Source: a virus (lineage: Duplodnaviria; Caudoviricetes). Taken from it: a DNA stretch of 38,695 nucleotides. Positions 2,704 to 16,354 of this stretch are shown here, piece after piece. The DNA lies in the IMG/VR virus record IMGVR_UViG_3300036778_000038, positions 1 through 38,695 of that record; one strand, given 5' to 3'. The translations under genes were made by a program, and so were the position numbers. The first letter of the stretch is position 1, and the number at the start of each line of letters is the position of its first letter. Under the pieces are notes generated by a model, which saw only the letters and a list, made by a program, of their open reading frames with translations, was not told the DNA's origin and searched no databases.

Positions 2704-3609
2704 TCAATAGTTGGAATTCTTGAACCCGGTCGGTAGCGGCGCCATTTTCCCTACATAAATCAGCGGGGAGCCGTCGGTATTTGCGTCGGAATGCGGCGGC
2801 ATGTCTTCGGCGTCGACGTAAAAGTCGCCGATGCTTTTTTGCACGAGGTTCACAAATTCGACGGCTAGTTCGTGTTGCAGGTATTCAAACCCGACGATGC
2901 GGATTTGAAAAAACGGCGTCGCATCGATGGCGCGCGTCGTGATCCGCACGAGTACGGCGCGCGACTTGAACCCAGTGTATGGCACGAGATGAAACGTTAA
3001 ACGCCCTGGCGTGCCGATGCTGGCGCCCGCTTCGACCTCCTCGAACGCCGAGCGTGTCGTTTTGCTTTCTTCGAGTTGCTGCGCATGCTCGCTTTTCTTC
3101 GTGACCTTCACGGAACGAAACGCGCCGATCAACTGCGAGGGCGATAAGCCCTGGCCGGCATCATCGAACGCCGTTATCAGGGTCGCGTTATCCTCCAGAA
3201 AATCGACCATCGCCGACTGCGATAGCGTGTTCGTATGCTGAGCCAGCAACGACGCCCATTCGGGCAACGCCTCAAGCTTGCAAAGTCCGTGATGCTCGAC
3301 ATGGCCGGGCAAGTCATCGTCGACGAGCCAGTCGAATAACGCGACGGCGCGCATTTCCTTTGGGTCGATAAAGATCGGCGCGTGCGTGAGCTTGTCCGCC
3401 TTGGCGTTGCGCGCGAAGTAGTTCGCGAAATCCTCGACGAGCGTCGTCGAAAACGTGCCGCGCTTGCGGTCGCGATGCGTGCGAAATGCTTCGGTCGAAC
3501 GTAGCTCGTAATTCGTCGGCACGATCACGGCGCCGTCGGGGATAGCCTGCCACGCGTGGGCGGCCGTGATGAGTTCTTCAAGTTTGATAATGTCCACCGT
3601 GTCGCTCAT
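2704..3609 (-). CDS. yfdQ: YfdQ-like / DUF2303 family phage protein
   Basis: RDRKRGTFSTTLVEDFANY, IFIDPKEMRAVALFD, PGHVEH, LSQSAMVDFLED pattern; follows its usual partner gene. Confidence 0.75.
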   Translation of the reverse strand: MSDTVDIIKLEELITAAHAWQAIPDGAVIVPTNYELRSTEAFRTHRDRKRGTFSTTLVEDFANYFARNAKADKLTHAPIFIDPKEMRAVALFDWLVDDDLPGHVEHHGLCKLEALPEWASLLAQHTNTLSQSAMVDFLEDNATLITAFDDAGQGLSPSQLIGAFRSVKVTKKSEHAQQLEESKTTRSAFEEVEAGASIGTPGRLTFHLVPYTGFKSRAVLVRITTRAIDATPFFQIRIVGFEYLQHELAVEFVNLVQKSIGDFYVDAEDMPPHSDANTDGSPLIYVGKMAPLPTGFKNSNY

Positions 3610-3612
3610 GGC

Positions 3613-3942
3613 TTAGCCCTCGGCCTGTCGTGCGTGAAAAAGGTCGCCCGTTGTTTCGAGCACAGTTAGAACGCCGCCGACGCCGACGTGTAGCGGTGTC
3701 GAGGTCGTGTTTTCCTCGATGTTCTTGCCGTGCTCGGTCGGCTTGGAAAAAAGAACTTTGTGAGTCATTTCGACCTGTGTCGATTCGCCGATGCGTTCAA
3801 AATCGAACGTCAATAACACGCGGCCTTTTTTGCCGTGTATGGCGACGCCGAGCGCCACGTCGGCGAATGCCTTCGCGACTTTCTGCCGGAAAACTCCGGC
3901 GTCGAGCTGGTCGAATAGTTCGGCTGGGTTGTTGTCGTTCAT
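3613..3942 (-). CDS. yfdP: YfdP-like phage protein
   Basis: LDAGVFRQKV...KKGRVLLTFD...KPTEHGKNIEENTTSTPLHVGVGG, directly upstream of the YfdQ-like gene. Confidence 0.7.
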   Translation of the reverse strand: MNDNNPAELFDQLDAGVFRQKVAKAFADVALGVAIHGKKGRVLLTFDFERIGESTQVEMTHKVLFSKPTEHGKNIEENTTSTPLHVGVGGVLTVLETTGDLFHARQAEG

Positions 3943-4457
3943 GGCTGAACCTCACGGATGACGGGATGAGATGAGGCGATGAGAACCGAACGCGGCAATC
4001 GGCGAACATCGAACGCGCGTAAGCTCGTGCCGTCGCCGTTGTTGATTTCGGGAAAGTCGCGGCGGTTACGCCATGCCGGGTTATCACGCCAGAATTGGCG
4101 CAATTCGTTTAGGTCGATAAGAAACCATCGCGCGACCTCGCCCGCGATGTCGGCGGCGAATCCGTACCAAAGCCAATCACAATGGCCGGTTTCGATTTTT
4201 TCAAGTTCGGTTTTTGAGTTGCCTACGCGGCATCGCAAAGTGAAGTCGAACGGGTATTTGATCGCACACGACGCGTCACGTATGCGTAAGCCAATGTGCA
4301 ACGGATGCATGGTGACCGTTACAAGGTCGGCGGCATGATGCATGTCGTCGTCCATATCCGATACGCGCAACACGTACCTACCGCATATCGCGATGGCCGC
4401 CTCGGTGTAGGCATCTGCCCAAAGACGCAAGCGAACAAATTTCGGGTAGTCGGTCAT
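3939..4457 (-). CDS. conserved hypothetical protein, possibly restriction-endonuclease-like fold
   Basis: D..D.....DL, FTLR...KTELEKI..G.CDWLWYGF motifs; fold is a guess. Confidence 0.55.
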   Translation of the reverse strand: MTDYPKFVRLRLWADAYTEAAIAICGRYVLRVSDMDDDMHHAADLVTVTMHPLHIGLRIRDASCAIKYPFDFTLRCRVGNSKTELEKIETGHCDWLWYGFAADIAGEVARWFLIDLNELRQFWRDNPAWRNRRDFPEINNGDGTSLRAFDVRRLPRSVLIASSHPVIREVQP

Positions 4458-4459
4458 AG

Positions 4460-4669
4460 CTACGCCGCCGAATGCTTAATCGTGAAACGCTGTCCACGAT
4501 TCCACGCGCCGACGGCTTCGACGAGTGTCGGCATATGCGGCGTTTTCTGACCGCAAAGCGAACACTCGACAAAAAATATCCCGAGCCATTCGTAAGCGTG
4601 CGGCGGTCGTTCGCATGTCTTGCAAACGGTCGGGCTCGTATCGCCGAATTTGATTTGACGCTGAGTCAT
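4460..4669 (-). CDS. Lar-family (restriction alleviation-like) zinc-ribbon protein
   Basis: CKTC...FFVECSLCG...EAVGAWNR signature; GAGGT RBS before ATG 4669. Confidence 0.7.
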   Translation of the reverse strand: MTQRQIKFGDTSPTVCKTCERPPHAYEWLGIFFVECSLCGQKTPHMPTLVEAVGAWNRGQRFTIKHSAA

Positions 4670-4682
4670 AAAATCCACCTCG

Positions 4683-4982
4683 CTAGGGTTCCTGGCGTTT
4701 GTTCAATTGCGCTTCGACTTGCGACACAATCGATTCGGGGTCGGCGCGTAATTGCGCCAACACTGAGCGACCCTTTAAATCGAGGAATTCGAGATAATGC
4801 CGACCGCATAGGCCGATACGCGCGCCGCCTGCTACGGTTTGAAACTGGTCGGCGAAACTGCGCATATATCGACCGTGCCCGACGTAGGTCATGCAATCGC
4901 GGACGAGGCAATAAATCGGCGTCACGTTATGTGCGGGTGCTGGCGTGGGCGCGGTCGATTCGTCGTCGTTAAAGTTATGCAT
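4683..4982 (-). CDS. hypothetical Cys/His-containing protein downstream of the replication initiator
   Basis: CLVRDC...LCGRH; overlaps the initiator stop. Confidence 0.6.
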   Translation of the reverse strand: MHNFNDDESTAPTPAPAHNVTPIYCLVRDCMTYVGHGRYMRSFADQFQTVAGGARIGLCGRHYLEFLDLKGRSVLAQLRADPESIVSQVEAQLNKRQEP

Positions 4983-5850
4983 CGAAAAAACCCTCGCTCA
5001 CTTTCGCGAAATTGTCGGGTTTGCAAAACCAAAACAGGGACGGACGAAAGCGGCGCGAGTGTCCGTTGCTCGGTTGCACCTTGCCCATGAGAAAAGCGTT
5101 CGTGCGAATGTGCTCGAAATAACGGCGCCAACTATCGAGGCTTTGCAAATCTCCCTCGCGAATGCGCGAACGAATACTCGACGCCCTGGCGCTCGTGAGC
5201 TTGCGCACGGCTGGCAGCTCGGGCATGAGCTGATGCCATAGCGCGACGACTTCGTCGGGTGACGGTTTGGCGGGTTTCGGTTTGCTGGCGCTGGCGCCGT
5301 TCGGCTTGTTGCCCGCGATCACGCTTTGCTCACGTTCAACACGAGGGGCATTAGCGCCAGCTAATTGCCCTATATCTTTTGCAGAAGAAACAGAAGGCAC
5401 AGAAGAAACAGAAGAAACAGAAGAAACAGAAGAAACAGCCGTACATGCAATGACATTGTCATTGCTTGCAATTGCCTTACCCGACATGTCGTTACATGCA
5501 ATTGCATTTTTCGGTTCGGGTTCATCGGGAAGCCGAGAACGCGGCTCGTGTGGGTGCGGGTGCTGGTGCTCGTCAAACTTCGTGACCTTGATGACTTTGA
5601 CGCCGTCGACGACGTATCGCCGAATGAAATCGATGGCAGCAAGCATGCCGAGCCATTGCTCGATATCGGCATTCGTGACGGCATCGTCAAAAGCGAACAG
5701 CTCGCCGCGAATTTTGCCGGGTCGGTCCTCCAACAAGCCGGGCCGAAGCGCGAGCCCGGTCAAGCCGAGTGCCAGTAAGCGCACGTAAGGCGGCAAGGCG
5801 CCGAGAAACTCGTTTCGCCAAAAGCCGGGCCGCAATGAGCGCGAATGCAT
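4975..5850 (-). CDS. phage replication initiator (lambda O-like)
   Basis: N-terminal RSLRPGFW...RLLALGL...LEDRPGKIRGELFAFDD, low-complexity linker with DNA repeats, C-terminal WHQLMPELP...FLMG...LFWFCKPDNFAKVSEG; alternative start 5874. Confidence 0.8.
   Translation of the reverse strand: MHSRSLRPGFWRNEFLGALPPYVRLLALGLTGLALRPGLLEDRPGKIRGELFAFDDAVTNADIEQWLGMLAAIDFIRRYVVDGVKVIKVTKFDEHQHPHPHEPRSRLPDEPEPKNAIACNDMSGKAIASNDNVIACTAVSSVSSVSSVSSVPSVSSAKDIGQLAGANAPRVEREQSVIAGNKPNGASASKPKPAKPSPDEVVALWHQLMPELPAVRKLTSARASSIRSRIREGDLQSLDSWRRYFEHIRTNAFLMGKVQPSNGHSRRFRPSLFWFCKPDNFAKVSEGFFDA
5382..5507. repeat. candidate replication origin inside the initiator gene
   Basis: Six tandem 9-mers CAGAAGAAA (5382-5435, one variant), then three TGCAAT-containing iteron-like boxes near 5443, 5464 and 5494. 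Confidence 0.65.
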
Positions 5851-5854
5851 GAGT

Positions 5855-6067
5855 TCAAGCCTCGGCGATGACATGGCGGCGGCGGTCTTGAACGGCGATA
5901 AACAGGCTTATGCGGGCTTCGTGATGCATCATCGCCACGTCGGCTAGGGCTCGGGCGTCGGGGCGGTTAGGCGCCCATGTGAGAAGCTCGACGGCGCGCA
6001 TGCGATGCCAGTCGAGCAACGCGTCGACCTCGTCGTCGGTCAGACGAATGCGGTTGCGTGAGGCCAT
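5855..6067 (-). CDS. hypothetical protein
   Basis: 70-aa ORF with GAGGT RBS between the cro-like gene and the initiator. Confidence 0.6.
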   Translation of the reverse strand: MASRNRIRLTDDEVDALLDWHRMRAVELLTWAPNRPDARALADVAMMHHEARISLFIAVQDRRRHVIAEA

Positions 6068-6077
6068 GGCGCCGACC

Positions 6078-6329
6078 TCAAGCGAATTTGCGGCGGCGAT
6101 TTACGCGCGGGTCGGCGTCGCCCTCGTAAATCGGGAATTCCTGGGCGATTTCGCGAAAGGTATCGGCCCAAAAGGCGCGATCAATCCAGCCGGCGAGCGT
6201 CTTTTGATGCGACGGCGGCAAGGGCTCGTCTATCGGGTAGCCGAGTACGGTTTGCTGAGTAACGCCGAGGATTTCGGCAAGCGCTCGCGAGGTTCCATAG
6301 CGTTCCTGCGCTTGGCGGCGGGTGATCAT
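6078..6329 (-). CDS. Cro-like HTH regulator
   Basis: MITRRQAQERYGTSRALAEILGVTQQTV...PLP Cro pattern; GAGGG RBS; first gene of the replication operon. Confidence 0.7.
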   Translation of the reverse strand: MITRRQAQERYGTSRALAEILGVTQQTVLGYPIDEPLPPSHQKTLAGWIDRAFWADTFREIAQEFPIYEGDADPRVNRRRKFA

Positions 6330-6364
6330 GGCGTGACCCTCGAAAAATTCGGTAAGGGTCGTTG

Positions 6365-6392
6365 ATACTGCACCACGCAAAACCGAATGCAA
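6365..6392 (-). promoter_or_regulatory. predicted promoter for the cro operon
   Basis: TTGCAT(6392-6387)-16 nt-CAGTAT(6370-6365), with degenerate operator TCGGTTTTGCGT in the spacer. Confidence 0.4.
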
Positions 6393-6720
6393 CAAGCGCA
6401 ACGACGTCGTTCGGACGTCCAAAACGGAAAGCCGAAAAAATCGCGCGCTGCCCTTGCCGGTATGCGCACGTATGCGCGCATACACGCACAACTTTTGACG
6501 ATGTCATCACGGCGCCGTGGCGCGGTTTGAGCGCCAGCCCGCGCCGCGCTTCGATTCCCTGGGGTTTCTCGGGTTTCCGAATTGTCGTCAAACCTTCACA
6601 TTTATCGTTCGTTCATTTAGACGGCTAATCGCCCTGTTTCATCCCTGGCTCGGCCATCTTTCAGGGTGGCGCCAGCCCGGCCGCGTCGATAGGGTGATCG
6701 AGCCGGGCGGGTCGCGGTCG

Positions 6721-6736
6721 TGTTCCATGTGAAACG
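6721..6736. promoter_or_regulatory. parS-like site (host chromosomal type)
   Basis: TGTTCCATGTGAAACG versus consensus NGTTNCACGTGAAACN: one mismatch, intergenic. Confidence 0.55.
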
Positions 6737-6812
6737 CCGCGCCGGCTCCCCCTGTCCGTTAGGCGGTCACAGGCCGCGCCACGGCTCGCCCGGTTCCCCT
6801 TGAGGTTTCCCC

Positions 6813-6841
6813 TTGCGTCGATCCTGGCGCGTTGCTACCGT
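6813..6841 (+). promoter_or_regulatory. predicted sigma70 promoter of the candidate sRNA
   Basis: TTGCGT(6813-6818)-17 nt-TACCGT(6836-6841) with extended -10 TG. Confidence 0.55.
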
Positions 6842-6847
6842 TCGCGC

Positions 6848-6950
6848 GTGGTTTGGGTTTGTCCGGTCCCGGCGACCTGGGCCGCACGCCTGCTAGGGCA
6901 GGGAATCCGGCGCCGTGTTTCCCTACCGGTTCACGGCGCCGGCATTCTTT
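6848..6950 (+). ncRNA. candidate ~100-nt trans-acting antisense sRNA
   Basis: Promoter upstream, internal hairpin 6864-6884, 11-bp terminal stem (6907-6917/6932-6942) plus CATTCTTT, no credible ORF; segments complementary to the int RBS. Confidence 0.5.
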
Positions 6951-7364
6951 CCCGCCATTTCCTCGGCATCCCGAGCGAATCATTCGGAAACCCCTAGAAC
7001 CGCCCGGCGTGGTGACTTACTGGCGACTTTTCGCCGATACGCCAGCTCGACAAGCGAGCAACGGCGCGGCCTGCCAGGGTGACGACAAGTAACCCAAAGA
7101 AACTCACACATCGGAAACCCGAACGTGATTCGCGCACGTATGCGCACGTATGCGCGCATCTTTTCACGCCTAACTCACTAGAAACGTTCGGGTTTCCGAG
7201 TCCATACGGGGGCGTAAGGCCGAACCCGTTGCCCTGGCTCAACGCGCCAGCCTGAGCCGGTGTGGTGATCAACCGGTGACATCGAATGCAAGTATTCATG
7301 CGGTGACCATTTGGTTACCTATCGCGGGTCTATACCGCGCCAGCCCGCGCCCGTGCTGAGCTGA

Positions 7365-7392
7365 TTGATTAGTTCGGGTTTCCGAATAGAAT
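7365..7392 (+). promoter_or_regulatory. predicted integrase promoter with operator in the spacer
   Basis: TTGATT(7365-7370)-16 nt-TAGAAT(7387-7392); TCGGGTTTCCGA at 7374-7385. Confidence 0.6.
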
Positions 7393-7426
7393 ACTTGTCG
7401 TCACCAATCCCTAGCAGGAACAAACC

Positions 7427-8791
7427 ATGAAAGTCAGCATCACGACCGACACACAAATTCGTTCGGCGAAACCCGGGCGTTATGCCCTGGGAAATAACCT
7501 TTTTTTGCTCGTCCGCGATAGCGGCTTGCGTCAGTTCAGCTACCGGGGCGCCGACGGCACGGCCAAAGGAACGCGCCGGCTCGCCAAGCTGGGCGAATAC
7601 CCGACAATGACGCTCGCCGCTGCCCGCGCTATGGCGTTGCGTGAGAAGGCCGCGCGCATGGCTGGCACGACGCTGATTCGACCCAGCAACAAGGGCAAGC
7701 CACGCGGCAAGCAACGCCCGAGCGTGGCGGACCTGGGCGAGCCCATGGCGAACCCGCAAACCGCCACGTTCGGCGACTGGTGCGACTTGTATGTTCACGA
7801 GGTCGTGTCAGCGGGCCTATGGAAAGCGTCGAGCCACAACACGCACGAAAAGCATATCGGCAAGTATTTGCGGGGGTTTGGCTTTTGGGGCGATCCGCTG
7901 CCGTCCATCGAGCCGGCCGACGTGTCGATTTTCCTCAACGCGATCTATAGCGGGCGCCACGTTGCCCAAAACGGACGCCCGGCGCCGTCGGTCGCGAAAC
8001 AGTTGCTTTCGCTGATTTCCTACATTTTCCGGTTCGCGGTCGAGCGCAACGCGAAAGGCGTTACCGATCCGCGCCCGTTCGTGTCCCTGGGCGCCAGCGT
8101 CGGCGGGCGCAAGGGTCAGGCGACAAAGCATTTCCCGAGCCTGAAAGACCTCAACGACCTGGGCGGCGTGCTGCGCGAGTTGCGCGACCGTCCCGCCCTG
8201 GCGTTGCCGTTGCGTAACGCGTGCATCCTTCAGGCATTCACCTTGCACCGCTCGGCGGTCATTGCTGAGATGCGCTGGGCATGGTTTGACCTCGACGCCG
8301 CCGTGCCGACCCTGCGCGTCCCGCGCGAGTTTATGAAAATGAGCGACGCCGAACGCGGCGATTTCCTGATGCCGATTTCGCCGTTTGTTGCCGACTTCGT
8401 GCGCAAGCTGCCGCGCAACCATCCCGAGCGGTTGTTCGTGTCGGCACGCGACAAAACGGTCGCCATGAAATCGACCGCGCTGCCGCAAGTGTATGCAAAG
8501 GGGCTCAAGCTCGGCGGTCAAATGGTCCCGCACGGCTGGCGCTCGGCCTATTCGACCTGGGCGCACAACCTACTCGACGAAAAGGATTCGCCCGTTTTTA
8601 ACCCGGTAGGCGTTGAGTTTGCACTCGATCACGAACCGCGCTCGCAAACACGGCGCGCGTATGACCACGTAATGATTGTGCATCGTGCAAACAAAATGCG
8701 TGCGCCGTTATTGGCATGGCAAGACATTTTGTTTCGCGCCATGAATGGTGAACACATTCCCGCGTTGAGCTTGTCGGATTTGGCGGCATAA
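7427..8791 (+). CDS. int: tyrosine integrase, P4-like with N-terminal arm-binding domain
   Basis: GRYALGNNLFLLV...LGEYPTMTLAAAR arm domain; catalytic R (LHRS), K (MKM), HxxR (PHGWRS), H (LDH), Y (RAYDH). Confidence 0.92.
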   Translation: MKVSITTDTQIRSAKPGRYALGNNLFLLVRDSGLRQFSYRGADGTAKGTRRLAKLGEYPTMTLAAARAMALREKAARMAGTTLIRPSNKGKPRGKQRPSVADLGEPMANPQTATFGDWCDLYVHEVVSAGLWKASSHNTHEKHIGKYLRGFGFWGDPLPSIEPADVSIFLNAIYSGRHVAQNGRPAPSVAKQLLSLISYIFRFAVERNAKGVTDPRPFVSLGASVGGRKGQATKHFPSLKDLNDLGGVLRELRDRPALALPLRNACILQAFTLHRSAVIAEMRWAWFDLDAAVPTLRVPREFMKMSDAERGDFLMPISPFVADFVRKLPRNHPERLFVSARDKTVAMKSTALPQVYAKGLKLGGQMVPHGWRSAYSTWAHNLLDEKDSPVFNPVGVEFALDHEPRSQTRRAYDHVMIVHRANKMRAPLLAWQDILFRAMNGEHIPALSLSDLAA

Positions 8792-8868
8792 AACGCGCAT
8801 GGTTGTTTGTGATGTTGCGCACGCACGCGACATTTCAAACTGACAAAACGTAATTTCGTAATGAGACC

Positions 8869-8906
8869 AAAAACTTCGGCAATCCGATGATTGTCGGGGT
8901 TTTTTT
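8869..8906. terminator. bidirectional intrinsic terminator after int
   Basis: aaaaacttcggcaatc-cgat-gattgtcggggttttttt. Confidence 0.75.
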
Positions 8907-9074
8907 ACCTGAACGTCAGCCTAACGAAAGAAAGTATTTGCGTCGGCAAGCATCAATATCGACCCGGCGCAAACCCCCTTGTTTTAAGCGGTTCTCATTG
9001 CGAACAGACGTCTATACGGCTGGCATCAAAAGGTCGAGTTTCGGTTTTTTGTGAACTTTGACGAGTTTGCCTAG

Positions 9075-9103
9075 TTGATTTCCCGCTCGGGTTTTCGTAG
9101 CGT
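9075..9103 (+). promoter_or_regulatory. predicted promoter for the xis/accessory operon
   Basis: TTGATT(9075-9080)-17 nt-TAGCGT(9098-9103); operator variant TCGGGTTTTCGT in the spacer. Confidence 0.55.
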
Positions 9104-9148
9104 CCTGCGCTCGGGGAGAATCGCAACAACGATAGGGGTCACGGACTG

Positions 9149-9310
9149 ATGAGCGAACACACACGCGGCGGCGCGCTTGCGCCGTCCTGGCTGAGCTTGA
9201 ACCCGCCGCCTTGCCTACCTACTGCCCAACCCATGCGCGCCCCTTGTGGCGCCGCCGGCGCCCGATGTCATCCTGTGCGAACCCGTGCGCCCGGTGACGG
9301 GTTAGCGTAA
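9149..9310 (+). CDS. 53-aa leader ORF coupled to xis (TAATG overlap)
   Basis: Translated by hand (MSEHTRGGALAPSW...DGLA); below the ORF-track cutoff. Confidence 0.35.
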   Translation: MSEHTRGGALAPSWLSLNPPPCLPTAQPMRAPCGAAGARCHPVRTRAPGDGLA

Positions 9311-9567
9311 TGCCGCGCCGGGCGCAACGACGCGAGCCCGGCGAACGTCCCATCTTGACGACGAGCGAAGTAGCTAAACGCTACCGCATGAGCGTGCACA
9401 CGATTCGCCGAGGCGTGCGCCAGGGTCTATTCCCCATGCCGCGCATTCTCGGGCCGCATTCGTGGGTTTGGGATGAGGCCACGCTCGACGAATGGTTTTC
9501 GACTGTCAGCGTCGACGAACTTCGGTTACAAATAGCGGCAAGCCGGGGGGGCCGGTCGTCGCTTTGA
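9310..9567 (+). CDS. AlpA/Xis-family excisionase (recombination directionality factor)
   Basis: ILTTSEVAKRYRMSVHTIRRGVRQGLFPMPRILGPHSWVWDEATLDEW; adjacent to int. Confidence 0.85.
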   Translation: MPRRAQRREPGERPILTTSEVAKRYRMSVHTIRRGVRQGLFPMPRILGPHSWVWDEATLDEWFSTVSVDELRLQIAASRGGRSSL

Positions 9568-9848: not shown

Positions 9849-10298
9849 ATGAACGACGTCGCGCGCTCGCGCTGGTGGATTCTCGACGGCACGACGCCCA
9901 TACCGGCGCCGACGCTCGTCGCGTGGGCCGACTGGTTTGCTTGCCATGCGCGCGACGCCCTCGTCGCACAAACACGGGTCGGGCCGGTGATCGTGACAAC
10001 GCGATTTACCGGCATCGATCATAGTGTCGCCGACGGTCCGCCGAACCTATTCGAGACGCGCCTCGATGGTGAGGCGTTGCCGTTGTTGTTGCCGCCTTGC
10101 GCGACCTGGGCGGATGCAGTGGAAAGGCACGGCGTCGCCGTGCGTGTCATTGAAAGCGAACAGTGCCAGCCAGACGAGGCCATGCGGGGTGCGTGGCCGG
10201 CGCGTGTTATGTCTGCTTTCGTCCGGGCGGTAACGTGCCGCCCGGCTTTTTTTCGACCATCAAAAAAGGAACCGACCCTATGTCAACCCAGCGATTAA
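9849..10298 (+). CDS. hypothetical phage protein, paralog of 15268-15690
   Basis: WILDG..P...WADW...TRFTGIDH..GPPNLFET...TWADAVERH; start ATG 9849. Confidence 0.65.
   Translation: MNDVARSRWWILDGTTPIPAPTLVAWADWFACHARDALVAQTRVGPVIVTTRFTGIDHSVADGPPNLFETRLDGEALPLLLPPCATWADAVERHGVAVRVIESEQCQPDEAMRGAWPARVMSAFVRAVTCRPAFFRPSKKEPTLCQPSD
10223..10253 (+). terminator. intrinsic terminator-like hairpin just before the XRE regulator
   Basis: ccgggcgg-taacgtg-ccgcccgg-cttttttt; lies within the 3' end of the preceding ORF. Confidence 0.55.
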
Positions 10299-11263
10299 AC
10301 AAAGATAGCGCATCGCCGGCTCGCCTTGCTATGGCGTCGCGTTTAACTGAGGCACGCCTCGACCGACACCTAAAACAAGTCGAGCTTGCCAAGCTGGCGA
10401 ACGTGCAAGCGCACGTCATCACAAATATTGAAGCCGGCCATACCGTCAACCCATCGGCCGAGGCATTCATTCGATTGTGTCGTTTTTTGAACCTTCGGCC
10501 TGAGTGGCTACTCGACGGCGAGGGCGAGAAGTTTGTGCCCGGTCCCGTCGACGTTAAAGCGCCCGAGCCCGTCACGATTGAGCGCGTGCCGCTGGTGCTG
10601 GCGAATACGTTGCTCATGGTCGTTGAGGAAATGCATTACGGACAATTCTTTTGTCCCGAAGGCCTCGACGTGGGCCATGTTCGACGCTGGCTTGCCGCTT
10701 TCCTTGAGGTTCCCGAGTTGCGCGCCGTGGGCGATCATTTCAAGCGCGCGACGTTGGAAAGCGACCCGGCGCAGCCCGGCACGCGGCCGACGCTGGTCGT
10801 CAATAACACCGGCCTACTACCCGTGCGAACCCTTGAAAGCGGCGGCGCGTTGCCGAAGCCCGAGGCGCAGCCCGTCATGGGCAAGACGGCGCGCTTAACC
10901 ACGCCGGCCGCCTCACGCGCCAGCGCGCCTATCGATGATTTGCCGCCGATAGTCGTGTCATACGATCCCTTCAAGGGAACCAAGCTCGGGCGCATCAAAA
11001 AGGGAAGCTATACGGATTTGCAGCTACGCAAGCGCACGCCGATGCGCAAAGACGGGAAGCTTAGACAGTTTGACGTGTGCGCGCTGATGGGCATTTCGCC
11101 ATCAAGCTTTTATGTCATGCAACAGAATGACCCCGACTTTCCGCAGCCGTGCGAATTCCAGCCGAACGGGAAGGCCGCCGCCTATGAACGCAAAGATTTC
11201 GAGCGTTTTCTCGCGCTGAAAATCATGCAAAGGCATGAGCATCACGAGGCGCAAGCGTCGTGA
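10280..11263 (+). CDS. two-domain regulator: N-terminal XRE/CI-like HTH plus C-terminal AlpA-like HTH
   Basis: RLTEARLDRHLKQVELAKLANV...ITNIEAG...LNLRPEWLLDGEG; C-terminal LRQFDVCALMGISPSSFY...PDFPQP...AYERKDFERFL; AAGGA RBS before ATG 10280. Confidence 0.75.
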   Translation: MSTQRLNKDSASPARLAMASRLTEARLDRHLKQVELAKLANVQAHVITNIEAGHTVNPSAEAFIRLCRFLNLRPEWLLDGEGEKFVPGPVDVKAPEPVTIERVPLVLANTLLMVVEEMHYGQFFCPEGLDVGHVRRWLAAFLEVPELRAVGDHFKRATLESDPAQPGTRPTLVVNNTGLLPVRTLESGGALPKPEAQPVMGKTARLTTPAASRASAPIDDLPPIVVSYDPFKGTKLGRIKKGSYTDLQLRKRTPMRKDGKLRQFDVCALMGISPSSFYVMQQNDPDFPQPCEFQPNGKAAAYERKDFERFLALKIMQRHEHHEAQAS

Positions 11264-14450: not shown

Positions 14451-14701
14451 GCGAAAGCGACTGGATTGTTCGTCTACGGCATGAGGTCTTAATGTCGTCG
14501 ATGAAATCGAATTTTACTTTCACTCGTGACGAGGTTATGGAATTACTCGGCGGGGTATTTGCGCAAGGCGATGCGCTGGCGCGTGACGACCTAGCGGTCA
14601 GAATTAGGCTTGTGTTGCCGGTGATTCGCGCACGAACGGGCGTGCCGCTATTCGATGCCGGAACGCATGACGCATGCGAAAAAATCGAGGCGTTGTTATG
14701 A
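14447..14701 (+). CDS. hypothetical protein
   Basis: GAGGA RBS, ATGA overlaps. Confidence 0.6.
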   Translation: MSESDWIVRLRHEVLMSSMKSNFTFTRDEVMELLGGVFAQGDALARDDLAVRIRLVLPVIRARTGVPLFDAGTHDACEKIEALL

Positions 14702-15060
14702 GCGACCCGATTTTTGTTTTCGGCTCCAACCTCGCCGGGCGCCATGGCAAAGGCGCCGCGTTGTTCGCCGTCATGCAACGCGGCGCCGTGCCCGGGCAAG
14801 GTGTCGGGCGCATGGGGAACAGTTATGGCATACCGACGAAAGATGAGGCGCTTAAACCGCTGCCGCTTGAGGTCATCGCCGAATTTGCCTCGCGCTTTGT
14901 CGATTACGCGCGCCAGCATCCCGACGACGTGTTCGAGTTGACGCCTATCGGTTGTGGTTTGGCCGGCTATACGCCCGCGCAAATCGCGCCCATGTTTCGC
15001 GGCACGCCCGACAATGTGCTGATGCCCTGGCCGTTCACTGAGGTCTTACACGATGAATAA
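14698..15060 (+). CDS. macrodomain-like phage protein (A1S_2505-type)
   Basis: IFVFGSNLAGRHGKGAA, SYGIPTK and TPIGCGLAGY match the two Gly-rich ADP-ribose-binding loops of macrodomains. Confidence 0.75.
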   Translation: MSDPIFVFGSNLAGRHGKGAALFAVMQRGAVPGQGVGRMGNSYGIPTKDEALKPLPLEVIAEFASRFVDYARQHPDDVFELTPIGCGLAGYTPAQIAPMFRGTPDNVLMPWPFTEVLHDE

Positions 15061-15707: not shown

Positions 15708-15736
15708 TTGCATACGGCCATTGGCCGTATTAAGCT
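15708..15736 (+). promoter_or_regulatory. moron promoter with a perfect palindromic operator
   Basis: TTGCAT(15708-15713)-17 nt-TAAGCT(15731-15736); ATACGGCCA-T-TGGCCGTAT at 15712-15730. Confidence 0.75.
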
Positions 15737-15785
15737 ATGCACTCCGGTGGCGGTTTCGCCGCCCTCACGCCCTAGCAGGTAGCCC

Positions 15786-16148
15786 ATGAAAGTCCTAACC
15801 CGCGTCGTCGACACGACGCAACTACAAATCGGCGACGTCGTCCTATGCCACGGCGGGCGCTTTGAGCTGGTCCGTTTTACGTGTGACGCGGCTAAAGCTG
15901 CCAACCGCGCCGCCTATGTCCGCCGAACCAAAAGCGAGCGCTACAACGTCGGCAAGGCCGACGAGGTCGAGCGGGAAGCGGTACGCGAGGAAACGTTGCG
16001 CGCCTTTGCGACGCGTTACCTCGGGCGCCAGCATCCAGACTTTGAGTGTTCCGTGCCGCTCGACTGGCGCGATTGCGAGGAAAACCCGGACGGCTGGAAT
16101 ATTCAAGGCAATGCCCTGGCGCGGTGGACGATTGAGGTAACGGCGTGA
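15786..16148 (+). CDS. hypothetical protein, candidate anti-CRISPR/anti-defence by context
   Basis: 120 aa, first gene after a dedicated promoter, coupled to a small HTH gene; function inferred only from context. Confidence 0.6.
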   Translation: MKVLTRVVDTTQLQIGDVVLCHGGRFELVRFTCDAAKAANRAAYVRRTKSERYNVGKADEVEREAVREETLRAFATRYLGRQHPDFECSVPLDWRDCEENPDGWNIQGNALARWTIEVTA

Positions 16149-16354
16149 ATGCGCCGTCACCCTTGGAAATCAGCGCGGCGCGTGCCGCCGCTGGTTTGAC
16201 GCAAGCCGAGGCGGCGGCGCTCGTGTATGCGGACATTCGGACGTGGCAGCGCTGGGAAGGCGACGAACGCGCCATGCATCCGGCGATTTTTGAGCTTTTT
16301 ATGATCAAGACGGGGCAAGTTAGCGCCCGTCGAACAAATACGGTGAAGGTATGA
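16145..16354 (+). CDS. small XRE-family HTH protein (Aca-like)
   Basis: PSPLEISAARAAAGLTQAEAAALVYADIRTWQRWEGDERAMHPAIFELF. Confidence 0.8.
   Translation: MNAPSPLEISAARAAAGLTQAEAAALVYADIRTWQRWEGDERAMHPAIFELFMIKTGQVSARRTNTVKV

Follow-up and report, generated by a model that had tools for sequence, protein, structure and literature searches.

A candidate antisense RNA in the cro–int interval of a soil metagenome phage, complementary to the start regions of integrase and a distant gene

The virus record studied here, a single entry from a soil metagenome, was analysed over its entire 38,695 bases (the window). It carries a capsid gene fused to a protease gene and tail genes of lambda type, and the top matches of these genes are phages of Proteobacteria. 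The CheckV completeness figure for the window is 78%, and the presence of an HNH gene at one end and of a gene upstream of terminase at the other suggests that the two ends may join near cos. ARAGORN detected no tRNA or tmRNA gene in the window. The interval of interest is bordered by the following genes:

6329, minus strand: cro-like gene (weak HTH match), heading a replication operon that runs leftwards
7427..8791, plus strand: int, tyrosine integrase with a P4-type arm-binding domain (phrog_1, E 1e-25; PF13356, E 2e-9)
9310, rightward: excisionase-like (xis) gene
10280, rightward: XRE-type HTH gene

The HGWR residues and the late tyrosine of the integrase are invariant in four homologues. 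Inspection of the 1.1 kb between cro and int revealed no credible ORF, and hence no cI opposite cro; an overlooked cI in this gap was ruled out on the same inspection.

An initial annotation of this DNA had proposed that the gap encodes a small RNA antisense to the ribosome-binding sites of int and of two putative anti-defence genes. The elements of the candidate RNA unit are:

6813..6841, plus strand: predicted sigma-70-type promoter, TTGCGT (6813-6818), 17-nt spacer, TACCGT (6836-6841), extended -10 TG
6848..6952, plus strand: predicted small RNA of ~105 nt, both ends deduced
6848..6862, plus strand: 5' pairing segment with two GGTTTG units
6889..6899, plus strand: seed, CCTGCTAGGGC, with GCUA (6892-6895) as the loop of a weak 4-bp hairpin
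6896..6953, plus strand: 3' hairpin, perfect 11-bp core (6907-6917/6932-6942) with arms extendable to 22 nt, followed by CATTCTTT

The promoter elements are correctly read and fit the relaxed pattern TTG-N3-N16..18-TA-N3-T, of which 6813 is one of 14 matches genome-wide and which also finds the int (7365), xis (9075) and g15786 (15708) sites; a strict scan, however, leaves 6813 uncalled, its sole match in 3500-9500 being the int promoter. The frames that cross the RNA (6800-6997 and 6832-7092) both begin with TTG, and the view that no credible ORF covers it agrees with the inspection of the gap. The free RNA is predicted to fold with a minimum free energy (MFE) of −56.6 kcal/mol and a z-score of −3.96, with 1 of 200 shuffles equally stable and none of 77 windows sampled genome-wide at −3.5 or below; this high score is owed to the 3' hairpin, whose score is similar for either strand. 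That hairpin had been given as the end of the RNA. Its 11-bp stem is indeed followed by CATTCTTT, but this tail makes a poor U-tract, and the structure is probably a leaky terminator or a processing site. The proposal that both pairing segments are single-stranded did not survive folding: the 5' segment sits in an MFE hairpin (6848-6885), and 14.1 kcal/mol would be needed to open the two segments. The seed is more accessible, its loop (6892-6895) being unpaired with a probability of 0.7-0.9 in the 6848-6952 fold and its complete opening costing 5.6 kcal/mol. An Rfam/Infernal search, which had been suggested as a check, returned no match at gathering score for the whole window, and at E<=10 only seven weak matches in 6300-7500, none of them C4-related.

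The presumptive targets, with their promoters, are:

7365..7392, plus strand: predicted int promoter, TTGATT-16-TAGAAT, with TCGGGTTTCCGA inside the spacer
7409..7429, plus strand: target 1, Shine-Dalgarno (SD) region, spacer and ATG of int
15708..15736, plus strand: predicted g15786 promoter, with a 9-bp-arm palindrome (15712-15730) over the -35/-10 spacer
15769..15788, plus strand: target 2, SD region and ATG of g15786
15786..16354, plus strand: g15786 (120 aa), then a 69-aa HTH gene (16145)
4678..4688, minus strand: possible target 3, a one-base-bulged copy ahead of a Lar-like gene (ATG 4669)

The sequence CCTGCTAGGG (6889-6898) is the exact complement of CCCTAGCAGG (7409-7418) in the int SD region, and GCCCTAGCAGG (15769-15779), in the SD region of g15786, extends the complement of the seed to 11 nt; in both genes the site ends within the AGG of the SD. 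On int a second segment takes part, with GGTTTGT (6856-6862) complementary to ACAAACC (7420-7426) over 7 bp of the spacer, or, in the other register found by cofolding, 6848-6855 with 7421-7428 over 8 bp, which covers AU of the start codon. Thus 17 of the 18 nt preceding the int ATG are complementary to the RNA in two parts of correct antiparallel order, as had been reported, and every coordinate of this match and of the 11-nt match at g15786 proved accurate. Pairing with g15786 involves one segment only, compared with 10 bp plus 7-8 bp for int in the cofold. The int leader (7399-7440) is itself almost without structure (−1.8 kcal/mol). When 59 start regions, three of them with mis-set starts, were ranked by predicted binding, g15786 came first (−16.8 kcal/mol), int second (−13.9) and the Lar-like gene fourth (−10.0), in keeping with the forecast that int and g15786 would be the top targets.

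The third target fared less well. The bulged copy does lie at 4688-4678 on the minus strand, but there the upstream gene ends, with CCC as its final codon and TAG as its stop, and the genome's usual GAGG SD follows, so the match may be chance. The Lar-like gene matches Lar weakly in PHROGs (E 6e-5) and scores below the cut-off in NCBIfam, and g15786 belongs to phrog_10286, a PHROG of unknown function, so that the anti-defence label given to both genes is unproven. Beyond phrog_10286 no known family and no solved relative was found for g15786, which has two homologues (80% and 54% identical). Its predicted structure, of low confidence (pLDDT 57), gave no Foldseek match at E<=0.001, and the fold search was set aside as a clue because the model is of low confidence and the Atlas matches are below cut-off. 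The HTH gene behind it is weakly like Aca2/YdiL (E 7e-4, below cut-off); by analogy the pair may be called acr-aca-like in layout, a lead only. The 80% homologue has been annotated with an N-terminus 22 residues longer, translated from its leader; 17 of these 22 residues agree with the window frame, and ALAG, over the target site, is kept while flanking residues differ. This retention fits conservation of the g15786 site, albeit weakly, since 17 of 22 positions are kept anyway.

On balance we consider it probable, for this one genome, that 6848-6952 encodes an antisense RNA which works like C4 and blocks translation of int and g15786. Transcription would start from the promoter-like site at 6813, with the RNA beginning near 6848. 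First contact with a target would be made through the GCUA loop, from which the seed would zip to 10-12 bp over the SD of int or g15786; on int the 5' hairpin would then open and 7-8 further pairs would cover the spacer and start codon. Of the joint silencing of integrase and early anti-defence genes that was first envisaged, the part concerning int and g15786 gives the most satisfactory account of the anatomy, while the anti-defence part is not supported.

How far the complementarity departs from expectation was assessed in several ways. The comparison set was 67 distant integrase loci, namely those of L083-L208 in which the start could be placed and 1.1 kb of upstream DNA was available. The two-part score is 17 here and is reached by none of the 67, where the maximum is 16; a single complementary 10-mer occurs in four of them, and at equal distance from int all 67 have at most 7 nt, compared with 10 here in a window chosen post hoc. 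Three copies of CCCTAGCAGG occur in the genome versus 0.006 expected under an order-3 Markov model, for a word picked after the fact. The shorter CCCTAGC occurs five times versus 0.97 expected, four times on mRNA strands and three times ahead of an SD (the copy at 5949, within a coding region, was left out of the target count), and its rank of 177 among 13,038 seven-mers is not extreme. The 10-mer precedes 2 of 56 genes and the 7-mer 3 of 56. We conclude that the complementarity moderately exceeds chance.

It is nonetheless conceivable, if quite unlikely in our estimation, that chance assembled the locus: inverted copies would have arisen around attP, the starts of int and g15786 would have been copied, and 6907-6942 would be an ordinary terminator-like hairpin. 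Simulated 103-nt segments carry a 10-mer complementary to some start region in 4368 of 20000 cases (22%) and to two in 88 (0.4%), so that ~0.2 double matches are expected, as the genome holds ~45 non-coding segments of such size, read on both strands. Shuffled RNAs, which lose their own structure and are thereby favoured in the comparison, had a best partner as good or better in 27 of 52 cases and a second partner as good or better in 31 of 52; binding energy was therefore rejected as proof of targeting. Start regions of seven gene pairs have 10-mers or longer in common, so the int/g15786 match is not unique, and these two genes also share CCATGAAAGTC across their start codons (7425-7435 and 15784-15794) and nowhere else in the genome. 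No complement of CCATGAAAGTC was found in the RNA, and its presence in both genes suggests a copied start region. The failure to find a homologue in the collections searched (below) points the same way. Chance would, however, have had to place the double match 47 nt behind one of only 14 promoter-like sites, to add, in the correct order, a further segment that matches, and to do so with a match that includes CTAG, a depleted word (18 seen, 37 expected).

The DNA between the candidate RNA and int has features of its own:

7011..7405: likely attP, with arm-like GGT(G/T)AC at 7011, 7078, 7275, 7302 and 7313 (plus strand) and at 7094 and 7405 (minus strand), and a variant at 7022
7070..7093, plus strand: E2, a second antisense copy, in which 7078-7091 complements 7392-7405 (14 nt, perfect) and CCTGCCAGG is set against 7410-7418

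Seven copies of GGT(G/T)AC fall in 7000-7410 versus 0.32 expected, with pairs 11 bp apart at 7302/7313 and, counting the variant, at 7011/7022, and with the copies at 7094 and 7405 inverted; repeats of 10-bp period lie at 7132-7159. Upstream arm repeats with an inverted copy, here at 7400-7405, are an attP feature of P4-type integrases. The leaders of distant integrase relatives likewise hold short direct repeats and an inverted copy ahead of the ATG; an inverted repeat of at least 8 nt lies just ahead of the int start in 24 of the 67 loci, compared with 0 of 67 in a far control. A tRNA or tmRNA end lies just upstream of int on the same strand in 42 of 54 distant loci, these 54 being part of the 80 fetched, chiefly those with long upstream DNA. 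In a DNA sequencing run (X2) with related contigs across the region and 754 differences, C7020G and G7081T keep or improve the arm word. The attP site is therefore likely to span ~7000-7410, to judge from its repeats, with the candidate RNA just outside its left arm; integration would therefore carry the RNA unit to the far prophage end, from where the RNA would still be active in trans.

A search for the attP core gave a best match of 10 nt to 34 RNA-gene ends, and no recurring host match for 6330-7430 (5 + 121 + 121 genomes) or for 8790-9310 (121 genomes). A 20-nt match in one of the genomes (G003) was taken as chance, the stretch read there being without RNA-gene features. The int-xis gap gave no useful alignment with the closest integrase locus, L083; it holds an imperfect 19-bp inverted repeat (8848-8866/8993-9011), and a terminator-like hairpin with T and A tails (8869-8904) lies 3' of int.

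This abundance of DNA repeats in the neighbourhood counts against an RNA reading and raises the alternative, which we regard as unlikely, that the CCTGCYAGGG copies at 6889, 7070, 7409 and 15770 are operators or a start tag read by a phage or host protein. The word CCTGCTAGG would then be a protein-bound DNA site in either orientation, and complementarity would merely reflect opposite orientation. It is near-palindromic (CCT-N3-AGG), the copy at 7070 being a perfect CCTG-C-CAGG palindrome, and it lies among at least four other DNA repeat families in a region where, as noted, an inverted arm repeat ahead of the start codon is common for the integrase family. The start-associated sequences (SAS) of cluster K mycobacteriophages, whose mode of action is reported as unknown, also include one reversed copy in three genomes (PMC3203893). 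A protein site would leave several observations unaccounted for. The asymmetric tenth base is retained in all four copies, and their orientation splits exactly between coding and non-coding DNA: both intergenic copies (6889 and 7070) are antisense on the strand of the promoter-like site, while both gene copies are sense and end in the AGG of the SD. The second match of 7-8 bp to the int spacer is left without explanation, and since the seed lacks the GGT(G/T)AC arm word, the usual inverted repeat of the family fails to explain it.

E2, whose 14-nt part overlaps the arm-like DNA repeat words, allows a different RNA-based reading. In the fold of a read-through transcript (6848-7470) the int SD pairs with E2 at a probability of 0.87-0.92, and E2 is accordingly predicted to mask the int SD in such an RNA. 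We think it distinctly improbable that this is the whole story, with a transcript from 6813 reading through a weak hairpin, E2, aided by 6889-6898, folding over the int SD, no free RNA, and the g15786 match a copied start region. The poor U-tail would permit such read-through, and E2 offers 14 perfect pairs and 8-9 more; yet in the model it is E2 and not 6889-6898 that takes the SD (7413 pairs with 6894 at a mere 0.07), and the seed is left without an explanation. The X2 change G7081T keeps the arm word but costs E2 one pair, unless 7402 has changed to match, and long-range folds spanning 600 nt are unreliable.

A free RNA and E2 might also act together, as two locks tied to attP. Under this doubtful but conceivable elaboration, the RNA 6848-6952 would act in trans, also silencing the acr-aca-like operon, and E2 would mask the int SD in cis only before integration, with no cI opposite cro. 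Masking by E2 would be limited to the unintegrated genome because recombination at attP would separate E2 from int. Were this so, the locus would be to this phage what sib is to lambda, but placed upstream and acting by pairing, and it would be coupled to the control of counter-defence.

Returning to the antisense RNA, the initial annotation placed it where cI normally lies. That it stands in for cI is not borne out: the idea is weakened by the XRE-type HTH gene at 10280 and by a repeat of operator-like form that both the int and the xis promoter contain. Exact copies of TCGGGTTTCCGA are present at 6569, 7111-7122 (reversed), 7188 and 7374 (inside the int promoter), and variants at 938, 6984, 8876 and 9087 (xis promoter). 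The repeat has the operator-like form TCGG-N4-CCGA; the int and xis promoters carry copies in their spacers and share the -35 element TTGATT, and 7111-7126 with 7184-7199 forms a perfect 16-bp inverted repeat. These repeats look like the operator of a protein repressor, for which the XRE protein and Cro would be candidates. The XRE gene (10280-11263, plus strand, 327 aa) has an N-terminal XRE HTH and, by eye, an AlpA-like C-terminal HTH, which makes its product a candidate repressor encoded in the rightward early operon. Judged from these motifs, the RNA probably does not replace cI, and is probably a damper on integrase and one separately promoted gene beside a protein repressor.

Relatives were sought in several collections. 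Searching the RNA and intergenic region by blastn against 50,697 phages gave two short chance matches. Pattern scans of IMG/VR returned 80, 1 and 47 loci that resemble the window in the pattern alone, save that one of the 47 shares one tail gene. Integrase scans, the genome part of which covered 42 of 64 parts, returned 1, 17, 29 and 80 loci. Identity was 22-35% for nearly all of them, and the few closer ones were partial and did not include the upstream region. Scans with the replication protein gave 0 and 80 loci, without any architecture in common, and scans with g15786 gave 0 and 2 weak loci. No homologue of the RNA was thus found among the phages and IMG/VR records searched, collections that may lack very near relatives, and so no covariation. 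Of the sequencing runs listed for this DNA, two are of DNA and none is of RNA, a result that is silent on expression. Among 40 of the 754 X2 differences that were listed, none falls in 6813-6950 or 7392-7426, which is uninformative on seed covariation.

To our knowledge, the mechanism has been worked out for few phage antisense RNAs, and these act mostly on antirepressor or replication genes, as do C4 and CI. In a literature search, with most subscription papers outside its reach, no described phage small RNA acting on an integrase SD was among the entries listed, and the best reading of the complementarity is that the candidate would be an undescribed antisense RNA on integrase translation. 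If so, it would exert direct RNA control of integrase translation, linked to a separate operon, and add an RNA layer to the integration decision; as the pairing is short and exact, the proposal is readily testable with reporter fusions.

The closest parallel in working mode is C4 of P1 and P7 (immI), where two separate segments pair at a ribosome-binding site and a single icd-ant transcript contains target copies on either side of the RNA. C4 is reportedly processed from a precursor to a 77-base RNA. C4 of P1 is described as a trans-acting RNA that represses Ant synthesis (PMC8546580; PMC10695390) and C4 antisense RNA as Rfam RF01695 (PMC2864571). The candidate would resemble it as a phage-encoded RNA that regulates mRNA of the same phage in trans, with two-segment pairing at a ribosome-binding site, here that of int. 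It differs in its targets, int and an unlinked gene 8.9 kb away instead of icd-ant, and in having no Rfam match or tRNA-like fold (ARAGORN, 0 genes). Unlike in the C4 arrangement, no complement of the seed lies upstream of 6848 within 6330-7440, and the next gene is int. The parallel with C4 and CI that was drawn at the outset probably applies to a C4-like working mode; membership falls on the missing Rfam match, the missing upstream partner and the other targets. Membership of the C4/CI family was rejected for want of an Rfam match.

CI of P4 is described as processed from a longer transcript and as terminating transcription via seqA upstream and seqC downstream (PMC4825925). As in P4, the candidate would be an RNA in the control region of an element with a P4-type integrase and would pair with sites of the same element, but each of these sites is an SD region with a promoter of its own, and a search of 6330-7440 revealed no upstream partner. 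The SAS of cluster K mycobacteriophages are 13 bp long and present in 11-19 copies; they consist of one asymmetric word that covers the SD of several genes and that also occurs reversed in some of the genomes (PMC3203893). The arrangement here is similar, although the word is 10 bp in two start regions (7 bp in three) and its reversed copy sits between a promoter-like site and a hairpin.

For E2 the analogue is lambda sib, which lies downstream of int, acts through RNA decay and is separated from int by integration. Sib is described as near att and as lowering int expression from a long transcript (PMC5300877). By analogy E2 would follow the same logic, but it is upstream of int and would mask the SD. 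Finally, the acr-aca operon of phage ZF40 (Aca2) comprises, as far as the available part of the source goes, an inverted-repeat promoter, a small gene and an HTH gene (PMC6765145). The g15786 unit likewise has a promoter inverted repeat and a downstream HTH gene; it differs in that g15786 matches no known Acr by sequence or fold and the HTH gene is below the Aca2/YdiL cut-off.

Several further features of the window were recorded. A copy of TGTTCCATGTGAAACG, which we take to be two mismatches from the chromosomal parS consensus, lies at 6721-6736 (plus strand), 77 bp ahead of the RNA promoter; a parS-like match is also obtained in 3 of 100 shuffles, and nothing on this variant was found in the literature. 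A 22-bp repeat of 10-bp period is identical at 6460-6481, upstream of cro, and within 7132-7159, inside the likely attP; such repeats are possibly, on our assumption, Xis/AlpA sites. The direct repeat GCGCCAGCC(CG) occurs at 6531, 6669, 7244 and 7337, on the same strand and near-symmetric about 6945. Five iteron-like repeats with 9-bp spacing (5382-5444) lie in the replication gene and are missing or different in four homologues, and 14698-15060 (plus strand) encodes an A1S_2505-family phage non-structural protein that exceeds the NCBIfam cut-off. Over the whole window, AGAG/CTCT has one copy versus 57 expected and GGA/TCC 583 versus 1052, and CCGCGG, CTCGAG, TTCGAA, CGATCG, GAGCTC and CACGTG have zero copies. 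AGAG loss of this degree was seen in none of the loci fetched, where the lowest ratio was 0.45, and this avoidance suggests that host restriction or DNA-modifying defences have selected strongly against such words.
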